Notes: generated by a model from the sequence alone, not told the origin. A stretch of 19,107 nucleotides of DNA from Pseudomonadota bacterium (GCA_043718025.1 JAYSWN010000196.1:1-19107), one strand, 5' to 3'. Shown: positions 3,472 through 15,576, counted from the stretch's first letter. Program-made: numbers and translations.

Positions 3472-6400
3472 ATGCGTTGTACCTTAAAATCATTGAGCCG
3501 AGCTACGTTCTGCGTTCTATCCGCGTGCCAAGTCGCTACGGTTGGCCTTTGCCTTGCCCTGCCGGGCATTGCACAGTCCCCCAGTGTGAACCCCACCCAG
3601 GCGGTCCCCAAACCGGACCACGCCGTCGCGCCTAAAACGGCAGTTGCCGCGGCCAAACAAGAAGACAATTTAACCCCCGCCAAACTTAGGAATTTTACGC
3701 GCCACTTTTGCTTTTTGCCGCATCATCTGGATCCTCGTGGCCTTGGGTTGACCCCGACCGCCGAACAAAAAAAATCTCTAGAGTGCGCCGACAAAATTCT
3801 AAATGAGACGTATTTCAAAAATGCGCACAGCCGCGAGGCCAGCAATCAGGGCAACACGCTAATGAGCCTGCCCTTGGCTGACAAATGCAGCCTAAAACGG
3901 ATATTGGGTTACAGCGCTGAGTTCAGCTTTAATGACCCAATAAGCGCAGTTGTGGCCGCCATGGCCAAGCTCAAAATGTCTCCCCGCGAGCAGGATAATT
4001 TGGCGTTTTGCTATTTTCTTTCGCATCATCGTAATCCCACCGCTTTAGAAAAGAAATCTCCCAACTACATTTTCGAAACAGAGTTGGAAAAGACACTTGG
4101 GCAGTACCGCCTCACCATGCGTAAAGCAGAAGATGCCGGGTCTTGGAACATGCTATTTCTTAACGGCCAGCACCTAGACAAAGTGGCCCCGCCCGCCGTG
4201 AAGTGTGCGGAAGGCGATTTTTCAACCGCCTTTGAGGCCTATGCCTACCGCGAAGTTTTGTTGGGGGAGCCTTCATGGGATGCCGACGAACAATGGCGTA
4301 AATTCAATCCGGAGATTTCCCAAAAATTGAAAATTGGTTACGATCGTCGTCAATTTCTAGGTTATCTCCGCCTTAAATTTTGTGACCTGCAACGCCAAGA
4401 AGGCAACCCCCTCGAACGCATCCCCAGCGCGGTTAAATTTATTGGTTCCGGCGGGCAAATACCGAGTTGGATCACCGAATACCTTGTAAACGTGGTCGAA
4501 GGCGAAACTGGGGATACCGGTCGGCTGAAGTTAACTGACTATATTGACGATGGTTTTGTCGCCGAAACGGACCAGGCCGAAGGGATCGGGAATGTTCTCA
4601 ACGGTTGCCCCGTCGCCAAAGCCGCTCTGCAAGCGTCACTTAAGAAATCCTTCTTTGACTTACTAAAACAAGTAGGGCCCCACCCGCACCCGTCTGATCT
4701 AAATGACGAGGTTAAAAACGATCCTTACTGGATAGACAAACACGAAGATCCTAAAGAGGAACTCAATTTAACTGCGCAACAACCCACCCCCCCCGTCGCC
4801 CCCACGCCGGAAGAGTCAGCGAAAAAGGCGGCGGCCGAACAAGAGGGGCAAATTAAGCGCCAAGAGCGCGAATACGACCAACGCATTCGGCGAGGGAAGA
4901 TGGAAGGTTTTCTGCAGAAATCGTTATTGGCAACCCGTGCTACTTCCGAACTGATCCGAAAAAATTTAATCCCGTGTGGCGTTGAGGCCAACCCGGAAAA
5001 AGTGAAGCAGTTAGTCGAAAGATTTATTCCGAGCCTAGACCAGGCCACTATACCCATGTTGGTTAAACTCAATAACGCGATACAAAATGCGGATGGGTTA
5101 ACCCACGAATTTAATCCCGGCGAACTTAACGAACTTAACGAAAACTCTAAACTAGTCAGACTTTTTAAATTGCGAGAAACCGCCAAACCGATTGCCCCGT
5201 ACTGTTTATTTACTGCTGAAGAGGACCCGCGCATTTTTTCTAGTGATGTGACGAAAGACGCGGAGCTCCGTAAACAGATCGCGGACCTTGAGCCCCTCCT
5301 CTTTCCGGCCGCCAAAGCCACCTCGAATGCAGTAGACCGATCTTTTCTTTGGAGCTCCCACACCAGGGTGGGAACCCTGAAGAGCGAGCCGCTTCCGCAG
5401 GCATCTGGAACTCTTTCCCATATTGTTCAGGCCGCCAAAAACACCACGGGAATTGCTTGGGACGTGCTTTTTGCCAACACCGCAATTGCAAAAAAGGAAC
5501 GTGCGATAATTTTCCCTCCGGATAAAGGGGGCGATTACGGCCCGACGGTTTTAGATAGAATCAAGGCATCGCCGTTTCCGGTGGTTTCTGCGGCGATCGT
5601 ACGCGAGCATATATTGGATAAATTAGAAGCGGCTCAGCTAGATAGGACCCTCGGTCCGGCAAAGGTTTTGGCCCCGGAAGAAGCGGAAAGCTTTGCAAAA
5701 TTGCGAGCGGAGCTTTGCGCACAGCTGCGCAAAGATGGCCCTCGCGCGAAAAAAGATTTGGCCCACTTAAAGCGCTTCAACGAAGCCGTGCGCAATCTGG
5801 CCAATAAATGGAATCCCCCGGTTGGTCTGACCGAAGACCGCATGCGCCTCTTTTTGTCGCTTGAGCCCGTCATTCGCGAAAATGTGATCACCCGATTGTC
5901 GAAACCCTGTTTTGTAAAATATCCGGAAATTGAGGGGCCCCTATTACAAAATTTAGTGTCGGGTACCGTTGTCTCTTTTTCGAGCGATCGGGTCAAAGGT
6001 GAGTGGGTAGATGCTATCAATCGCTATTCAGTAGTCTGCCAGGTGATTCATGAGATTGAAGAACGTTCGTCTCCTGCGTTTTCAAAGGCGCCGGGGTTCG
6101 CAATATTACAAAGAGATTTGCTCACGATGAGCCTGGACGAAATGGGTGAGTTGCTCGATGAGATAATCGCTTCGCCCCGTTTCGGAAAGTTCTCGTTCAG
6201 CAACGAGAAAAAAATGGGATTAAACCATGAAGAAAGCACCGTAAAACCGGTTTTGAAAATAACTGCCCCGGCGGATAGCCGATTGGATTTTGTCAAACTT
6301 CCCTCCGGTCGTATTTCTAAAATCTATGCTGAATCAGCAGTGAGATACTTGAACGGGATTCATTACGATATTGCAAATGTCTTTGGCTCGGCAAAAGATG

Positions 6401-15576: not shown

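Follow-up and report, generated by a model that had tools for sequence, protein, structure and literature searches.

Judging by sequence comparison, the giant gene analysed here belongs to an unnamed family that is restricted to one bacterial order, is encoded in a conserved module together with a pseudo-nucleotidase, and matches no known system that we tested. The window under study is a stretch of 19,107 nucleotides that makes up the entire contig C108 of a 4.14-Mb, 92%-complete genome, and we read the host lineage as an uncultured order of the Bdellovibrionota with two families, represented in our sample by 34 and 4 genomes. The gene (the type A giant) runs from 3472 to 15576 on the plus strand, and its 4034-residue open reading frame is the longest in its own genome. 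The family is fast-changing, and its host appears to be an uncultured relative of the predatory Bdellovibrio. In the open-access literature, which leaves subscription papers aside, we found no description of either the giant family or the pseudo-enzyme module.

The gene is intact. From its ATG start the frame runs without an internal stop, where the other five frames hold 117–227 stops each, and the GC pattern by codon position (0.60/0.42/0.55) is coding-like. It had been predicted from the DNA alone to encode a non-repetitive protein outside the recognised families, and our searches bear this out. No self-similarity was found by BLASTP, and the DNA repeats within the gene are short and at chance level only. 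Pfam gave nothing at E<=0.1, NCBIfam a single match of 15 bits against a cut-off of 430, and neither the PHROG search nor the search for a PDB family produced a match. Neither catalytic modules nor tandem repeats of the NRPS/PKS, RHS, RTX, Ig-like or haemagglutinin kinds, which had been judged absent by inspection, were detected by Pfam, NCBIfam or self-comparison. Word-index protein searches, which are weak for long divergent proteins, returned the query itself or nothing. A metagenome scan matched 158 stretches, of which 0 were confirmed, the genome itself yielded no paralogue of the giant, and a promoter scan gave nothing exceeding shuffled sequences. There were no RNA runs among the listed holders of the giant sequence; the runs that hold it best are labelled sediment metagenome. 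Other genes of the window match the FAA hydrolase, DUF2269, SnoaL, alpha/beta hydrolase, rotamase and thiolase families in Pfam, with three genes matching nothing, and as predicted this search revealed no autotransporter, TpsB or T1SS family in the window.

A short contig from a metagenome assembly invites the suspicion of an assembly artefact or a chance open frame, and the presence of tape-measure proteins among the weak BFVD rows (E at least 0.13) that of a decaying phage tape-measure-like gene. We rule these out, giving them together only a negligible chance. Syntenic, co-linear relatives are present in independent genomes, two full-length relatives align with the giant from end to end, and co-linear alignment with the copies in genomes G001 (residues 80–3365) and G002 (1099–4034) excludes a chimera. 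The giant has no PHROG or phage tblastn match, the window genes match no phage family and its neighbours are metabolic, and the signal-like N-terminus speaks against either suspicion. The integrity of the assembly is also borne out by a Logan contig of 13,597 bases that covers positions 2272–15868 with zero differences, although the run is possibly the assembly's own source and thus not independent. Neither a chimera nor a full-length match to a characterised family, the two outcomes about which the original prediction had cautioned, was found.

Along the plus strand, the protein begins with a predicted Sec signal peptide at residues 1–34 (3472..3573), as had been anticipated; by eye and by hydropathy it has a basic start, a hydropathy peak of 2.0 at residue 12 and an A-x-A-like end, and it resembles the other N-termini of the family. 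Such a start is seen in 14 of the 16 family reading frames listed, the exceptions being G006 and G007, and in G007, which like G035 has a split giant, a signal-bearing frame of 654 aa overlaps the start of the giant. The two Pro-rich linkers lie exactly where they had been placed, at residues 436–448 (4777..4815) and 2700–2725 (11569..11646). The linkers had been described as separating charged helical domains, which has to be amended for residues ~1400–1640 (7669..8391): this segment is beta-rich by eye, and is a lineage-specific insert present in at most 1 of 21 relatives. A second conserved helical block at residues 2040–2350 (9589..10521) was recovered in 10 of 29 type-A sequences and is common to the genus and two further genomes. 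A coiled-coil-like segment (11719..12111) precedes the core, and at a similar position the G001 relative has a weak DMPK_coil match, below the cut-off. The core itself, ~310 aa at residues 2990–3300 (12439..13371), is the only block common across the order (22 of 29 sequences). It runs into a Gly/Ala-rich, marginally hydrophobic helical hairpin and further helices at residues 3262–3540 (13255..14091), delimited from models, composition and an estimate of membrane insertion. The hydrophobic bundle noticed earlier is thus real: the least charged stretch of 300 aa begins at residue 3261, with 15% charged residues compared to 27% for the whole protein and 31% Gly plus Ala. Family comparison marks residues 3650–4034 (14419..15573) as a soluble helical tail, which varies in length across the family; the tails contain no known domain, and specifically no toxin domain by Pfam or PHROG.

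Co-linear homologues of the giant occur in 3 of 3 congeners at 24–30% identity, and in G001, G002 and G003 a giant copy is followed by the DUF2269, 287-aa and SnoaL genes, as in the window. Matches to the C-terminal third were found in 5 of 101 related genomes, and to the N-terminal two thirds in 4 of 5 genomes selected for comparison. A search with residues 2901–3800 against 1.84 billion representatives returned the query, P0002 (3945 aa) and P0003 (3509 aa). We ran iterated local profiles over 29 type-A sequences, three of them fragments that stop short of the core, using reversed sequences and proteins of the same genome as decoys. Residues 2990–3300 gathered 22 of these sequences with no decoy under E 0.05, compared to 4–10 for each of the other nine blocks. 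Complete family members range from 1,602 to 4,790 aa, with 410–1,503 aa after the core. As only the core and hairpin are common across the order, it is there that the shared function is likely carried.

An 18-row profile of the core matched 20 of 401 phylum genomes, namely the genome itself, 17 of 33 other members of its family, 1 of 4 of the sister family, and one outsider (G264, E 7.6e-4). The outsider protein, which by reading we would name an SMC-like coiled-coil protein, was rejected. True matches are therefore found in 19 of the 38 order genomes, about half, and in 0 of the 363 genomes from outside the order. The G264 protein scores 6e-6 with our own core profile in a small database, so that the weakest members (G013, G034, G037, G012 and G015) rest no less on position and neighbourhood than on score; in G012, G013, G015 and G034 the core scores at or below threshold. 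What had been proposed as an undescribed class of giants proves to be a real family with no library match, limited in our searches to one order of the Bdellovibrionota.

The core was modelled with AlphaFold for residues 2990–3690 (14 rows, pLDDT 76, pTM 0.61) and for residues 2990–3400 (18 rows, pLDDT 78, pTM 0.64), with a pLDDT of 79–96 over model residues 1–160. Both models predict a small alpha/beta domain and then a three-helix stalk, with a helix of 54–55 residues (3233–3287) running from a polar core end to a hydrophobic tip; the chain then turns at Gly/Pro, comes back as a return helix and continues in more long helices. Confidence is lower for the hairpin, with pLDDT 54–71 in the second model. 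Foldseek found nothing at E<=0.001 in PDB or BFVD with these models. The best VIA Z values (7.9 and 8.2) belong to generic three-helix bundles with rmsd 3.0–3.3 over 114–115 residues, and no pore-forming toxin is among the VIA rows listed, which does not imply a novel fold. Comparison with the colicin, ClyA and SctE folds likewise listed only generic helical bundles, the models being large and the hairpin of low confidence. Three family profiles searched against PDB sequences gave best E values of 1.9, 0.019 (a dynactin coiled coil) and 0.39, none meaningful, and Pfam gave single weak matches only on 17 bundle regions.

The tendency of the hairpin to enter a membrane was estimated roughly over 19-mers, from an insertion scale with a simple weighting. 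The most insertion-prone 19-mer is the hairpin helix in 16 of 20 giants, and the best values for the 20 lie between -0.6 and +3.5 with a median of about 2.3, compared to -0.5 to -2.6 for five membrane proteins and 3.9–4.7 for four soluble proteins used as controls. The hairpin helix of the window giant scores 0.1 and that of P0002 -0.6. Such marginal hydrophobicity fits passage through Sec and later insertion in preference to a normal membrane anchor: in most members the hairpin would be too weakly hydrophobic to be halted in the Sec channel, yet it exceeds everything in the soluble controls. Among the neighbours of residues 3180–3640 in the ESM-Atlas, those with names are PT-TG, LXG, DUF637, Tle1-like_C, DUF4225 and TNT (0.82–0.88), and the top three before filtering are unnamed Bacillota clusters (0.90–0.92). 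Recognition values of 1790 and 1844 fall below the level of 2300, so these pre-toxin and translocation neighbours are weak leads. In 5 of the 29 type-A sequences the bundle carries EF-hand-like DxxGxGxxD loops, with 7 motifs in 71,851 aa of type-A sequence compared to 6 in 1.84 million aa of the genome's reading frames; the giant of the window has none.

Directly upstream of the giant (2429..3400, plus strand) lies the gene for a predicted lipoprotein of 323 aa. It has no Pfam match. Over the catalytic domain, a five-row profile of the lipoprotein matches 5′-nucleotidase/UshA structures (PDB ID: 2z1a; E 1.6e-7) as well as entries for UshA of E. coli, pointing to the metallophosphoesterase fold of their N-terminal part. 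In the alignment with 2z1a, however, the motifs DxH, GD, GNHE, H and GHxH, which we take to be the metal-binding and catalytic motifs of these enzymes, are all replaced. The window protein further departs from UshA in showing no match to the C-terminal substrate domain, in its lipoprotein-type N-terminus, and in a linkage to giant genes that is seen only within this order. Its lipobox-like cysteine is not followed by aspartate. Under the E. coli sorting rule such a lipoprotein goes to the outer membrane, which points to this as its probable destination. Homologous genes were detected in 33 of 34 genomes of the family and in 215 of 401 across the phylum; many of those in the phylum encode longer proteins, and motif I is degenerate also in those that were aligned.

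We took the flanks of 62 reading frames homologous to the lipoprotein (one a duplicate), chosen as top-ranked matches and not as a full census. A core-positive giant occurs in 20 genomes. In 14 of these a single contig shows both genes (G000, 006, 007, 008, 014, 016, 021, 022, 024, 027, 030, 035, 036 and 037), and in 14 of 14 the two lie within 2.6 kb of each other. The contigs of G001, G005, G010 and G017 are too short to show the linkage, and in G002 and G003 the lipoprotein adjoins an N-terminal fragment homologous to the query giant. The weak-core giants of G012, 013, 015 and 034 also adjoin the lipoprotein. Outside the order, 0 of 10 loci have a reading frame of at least 1,200 aa within 6 kb; one has a frame of 1,129 aa at 5.9 kb, and another a frame of 753 aa cut by the contig end. 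Ten loci within the order lack a giant (L108-L112, L116, L170, L172, L174 and L176), some of them on short contigs. In a quick tree of 58 rows, with five duplicate or fragmentary matches left out, five giant-less lipoproteins share the side of a 99%-supported branch with all 22 type-A lipoproteins, and the lipoprotein thus needs no adjoining giant. Kin are not independent, so that the linkage in 14 of 14 genomes counts as one old association, preserved while gene order and neighbourhood changed, and not as 14 events. Another possible component is a helical protein of 545 aa with a signal-like N-terminus (740..2377, plus strand), recognised from its sequence and from comparison of loci. Most loci of the two types described here have a signal-bearing frame of 260–570 aa next to the lipoprotein or next to the giant, with homology among these frames seen within genus-level groups only.

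The second type of locus (type B) is found in the same genome on C14, where a paralogous lipoprotein lies between a giant of 3793 aa and a protein of 1267 aa. Type-B giants of 3,056–4,349 aa (two cut by contig ends) occur in 12 family genomes and one sister-family genome, and the locus is syntenic in many family genomes beside genes that read as nusA/infB-like. The type-B lipoproteins form one clade with 99% support, together with three unassigned rows, and mostly keep the motif-II Asp alone. Both the type-B giants and the accompanying proteins of 1,240–1,400 aa have signal-like starts and a hydrophobic hairpin, with no homology to the type-A core by hhalign (probability <=1.1%). By these comparisons, two seemingly unrelated giant families share one pseudo-enzyme neighbour.

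The genes of the type-A module diverge far faster than their neighbours: between congeners the giant is 24–29% identical, the 545-aa protein 27–31% and the lipoprotein 40–41%, compared to 59–76% for four flanking genes. Relaxed constraint on a structural protein could likewise account for this. The type-A locus sits in changing neighbourhoods between genomes, and giants are found in tandem in G003 (11 bases apart), in G008 (4490 and 4215 aa, both as open frames) and in G027. G001 has at least two copies, one with ~400 extra C-terminal residues. The copies are 77% identical along their whole length in G027 and 34% identical throughout in G008; as paralogues align to their ends, no exchange of tails is seen.

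There is no secretion gene in the window. The genome has five secretins, one of them over the cut-off in a T2SS-like operon on C41 with a gspC/D/E/F/pseudopilin-like order by eye, and the others, as read from gene order and sequence, in a type IVa pilus locus (C199), Tad-like loci (C19 and C206) and a pilus-like locus (C175). Neither the T2SSL family nor Hcp was detected in the genome. Given a window without secretion genes and a genome with five secretins, export by Sec and then T2SS is possible, and the T2SS-like operon, which is unlinked to the giant gene, would answer the puzzle of how the giant leaves the cell. A substrate of 440 kDa is unusually large for T2SS. This secretin-containing operon elsewhere in the genome, and the pseudo-enzyme gene directly upstream of the giant, are features beyond those originally remarked on.

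The explanation that we put first, with a chance somewhat short of even, is that the giant is a membrane-inserting protein exported through Sec and T2SS and directed against other cells, and that the dead enzyme serves as its chaperone, anchor or means of self-protection. The giant would be exported via Sec and then probably by the genome's type II secretion system. The core would be a membrane-insertion device that pushes the hairpin into the membrane of another cell, prey or rival, where it may form a pore or let the tail pass. The 1,000–3,000 residues before the core, which differ between genera, would serve as a spacer and target-recognition stalk, and the lipoprotein, if it binds the giant, as a non-enzymatic partner that prevents the hairpin from acting in the periplasm of the producer. 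This explanation draws on a hairpin-bearing core that spans the order, on its weak hydrophobicity, on genes that change fast and duplicate, on the linkage to the dead lipoprotein, on the secretion and pilus loci of the genome, on the weak lead from the ESM-Atlas neighbours, and on membership of the Bdellovibrionota, a phylum that contains predators. The order may itself be predatory. The original prediction had already suggested an envelope or predation protein, and the predators in the phylum, the T2SS-, type IVa pilus- and Tad-like loci and the toxin-like hairpin that ends the core would be consistent with it. Several observations count against insertion into other cells. No fold match to a pore-forming toxin or translocator stands out, and the value of 0.1 for the window's hairpin helix is borderline for a true inner-membrane anchor. 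Toxin cassettes are not seen to be swapped, none of the tails resembles a toxin domain, a giant is missing beside five lipoproteins of the type-A side, and the core was found in only about half of the order's genomes. The fast divergence fits relaxed constraint too, and the export route has to contend with the missing T2SSL, the unlinked operon and the size of the substrate.

The main rival, possible but on balance doubtful, is an envelope scaffold in which the hairpin fastens the giant to a membrane of the producer itself, while giant, lipoprotein and medium-sized protein form a structural or transport complex spanning the periplasm. The hairpin helices of the window giant and P0002 come near to true anchors, lipoproteins are the usual anchors of trans-envelope complexes and the partner is a predicted one, no toxin domain was found, and the synteny of the type-B locus is what would be expected of a vertically kept housekeeping structure. 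The median estimate over the 20 giants, though, is about +2.3, and lengths from 1,602 to 4,790 aa, tandem copies and 24–29% identity within a genus are unusual for a machine of fixed geometry. The type-A locus also moves between neighbourhoods. Ranked after it, and unlikely, is a surface tether or adhesin, whose variable stalk of 1,000–3,000 residues binds prey or surfaces while core and hairpin only fix it, via the lipoprotein, to the outer surface of the producer. The N-terminal part is indeed the most variable between genera, EF-hand-like loops occur in the bundle of some relatives, and adhesion is among the roles proposed for other giant bacterial proteins (10.1101/2023.11.21.568195). Yet Pfam and BLASTP self-comparison revealed no repeats, Ig-like, lectin or beta-helix domains in the giant, and the window's own giant has no EF-hand-like loop. 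Moreover, a Gly/Ala hairpin that ends a long helix is not known as an outer-membrane anchor.

Last in rank comes a polymorphic toxin directed at competing relatives, in which the tail would be the toxin and the lipoprotein would confer immunity; we consider this very unlikely. There are general likenesses to such systems (PT-TG, LXG, DUF637, MafB), which also combine a secretion signal, a stalk, a hydrophobic helical region, a variable tail and an adjacent small gene, and the weak ESM likeness is to their pre-toxin domains; tail length ranges between 410 and 1,503 aa, and a copy in G001 is longer by ~400 residues. However, the giant has no Pfam match and no known toxin domain, paralogues swap no tails, RHS/FilH repeats and a processing protease are not seen, and the flanking frames listed (above 120–150 aa) include no orphan toxin–immunity cassettes. 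The adjacent gene belongs to one fixed, enzyme-derived family whatever the tail, and may stand upstream or downstream of the giant. A nucleotidase-fold lipoprotein also sits poorly with immunity proteins, which are typically unrelated to enzymatic domains (PMC3482391).

Other known systems share some features with the giant. As in the alpha-pore-forming toxins and translocators (colicin fold, ClyA/Hbl/YaxAB, SctE of T3SS), the protein is predicted to be all-helical and exported, with a Gly/Ala-rich, marginally hydrophobic hairpin that ends long helices in the models; a hydrophobic hairpin inside a helical bundle is the colicin-type principle (PMC7914777). The giant differs from these proteins in that no match was found by sequence, nor by fold above background, in being 5–10 times larger, in carrying the hairpin 410–1,500 aa from the C-terminus, and in its alpha/beta core of no known family and pseudo-nucleotidase neighbour. 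A similar picture emerges for the giants of Omnitrophota, which share very large size, a genome with a T2SS-like system and a probably predatory lineage. Those proteins are longer than 30,000 aa, span the membrane many times, in most cases contain SecA DEAD domains, also have recognisable domains for enzymatic activity or adhesion, and adjoin a T2SS-like locus (10.1101/2023.11.21.568195). The giant studied here has 4,034 aa and a single marginal bundle, lacks any Pfam domain, and is not linked to the T2SS of its genome.

Carried to its full extent, insertion into other cells would make this an undescribed attack apparatus, a conjecture that we regard as doubtful: secreted helical proteins of 2,000–4,800 aa would insert a hairpin in prey and open a feeding or delivery channel, restrained by a pseudo-5′-nucleotidase lipoprotein that was recruited twice, for two unrelated giant families. 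Little is understood of how predatory bacteria breach prey membranes or feed through them, and most of the large proteins that they secrete lack annotation. A fragment of ~650 aa with core and bundle and a candidate partner of 300 aa make up a defined, testable unit. If the giant is indeed a membrane-inserting protein aimed at other cells, it would represent a new class of such proteins and a new use of a dead metallophosphoesterase; if instead it belongs to the producer's envelope, the module would be a new, order-specific trans-envelope complex.

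The genome to which the window belongs carries, in addition to the 4034-aa giant (type A), a second, type-B locus at G000:C14:22320-40251 (L117, L118), which encodes an unrelated giant of 3793 aa, an exported-looking protein of 278 aa, a paralogue of the pseudo-nucleotidase lipoprotein and a hairpin protein of 1267 aa. Its synteny is kept across the family, beside nusA/infB-like genes (named from reading the sequences).

In two other genomes of the phylum the giant is found as two overlapping ORFs, of 654 and 2318 aa in G007 (L051:10105-18979) and of >1705 and 1481 aa in G035 (L173:3-9351); the gene may be naturally split there, or the break may stem from a frameshift or from misassembly. 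The same pattern is seen at the type-B loci of G014, G021 and G027, where a giant of ~3,100 aa is followed by an ORF of ~950–980 aa. Several type-A giants have EF-hand-like DxxGxGxxD loops within the hydrophobic bundle (L077, L078, L080, L082, L135 and L190); that of G022 has three, and a motif scan found none in the window's own giant. One G001 copy has a C-terminal extension of ~400 aa (L037:2146-3333), with no Pfam or PHROG match.

Other signal-bearing proteins of the window's genome include one of 1144 aa (G000:C222:7409-10843, minus strand) with a Gly/Ala hydrophobic hairpin that, by eye, looks like a Cry/ClyA-type pore-forming region, and two long coiled-coil proteins (C126:35490-41378, 1962 aa; C197:2923-6639, 1238 aa) whose C-terminal halves resemble each other and are rich in Gly, Ala and Tyr. 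Many of the medium-sized proteins encoded beside the lipoproteins, and other exported proteins, end in a short helix with at least one cysteine near the C-terminus, possibly a lineage-specific sorting or disulfide motif.

Longer relatives of the lipoprotein occur phylum-wide, with a degenerate nucleotidase domain fused to CxxCH haem motifs (L137:8577-10181; L138:8481-9890; L187:9611-11176, the last with four such motifs), and are candidates for the ancestor of the dead partner lipoprotein. In the window, a 22-nt inverted repeat with perfectly abutting, 91% complementary arms (597-636) lies between an FAA-hydrolase gene and the 545-aa gene, and could be a terminator or operator. In two separate genera the FAA-hydrolase gene is a near neighbour of the type-A module (window 2-595; L077:2-3380 in G014, together with kynureninase-like and monooxygenase-like genes, so named from reading their sequences), which suggests an old common neighbourhood.
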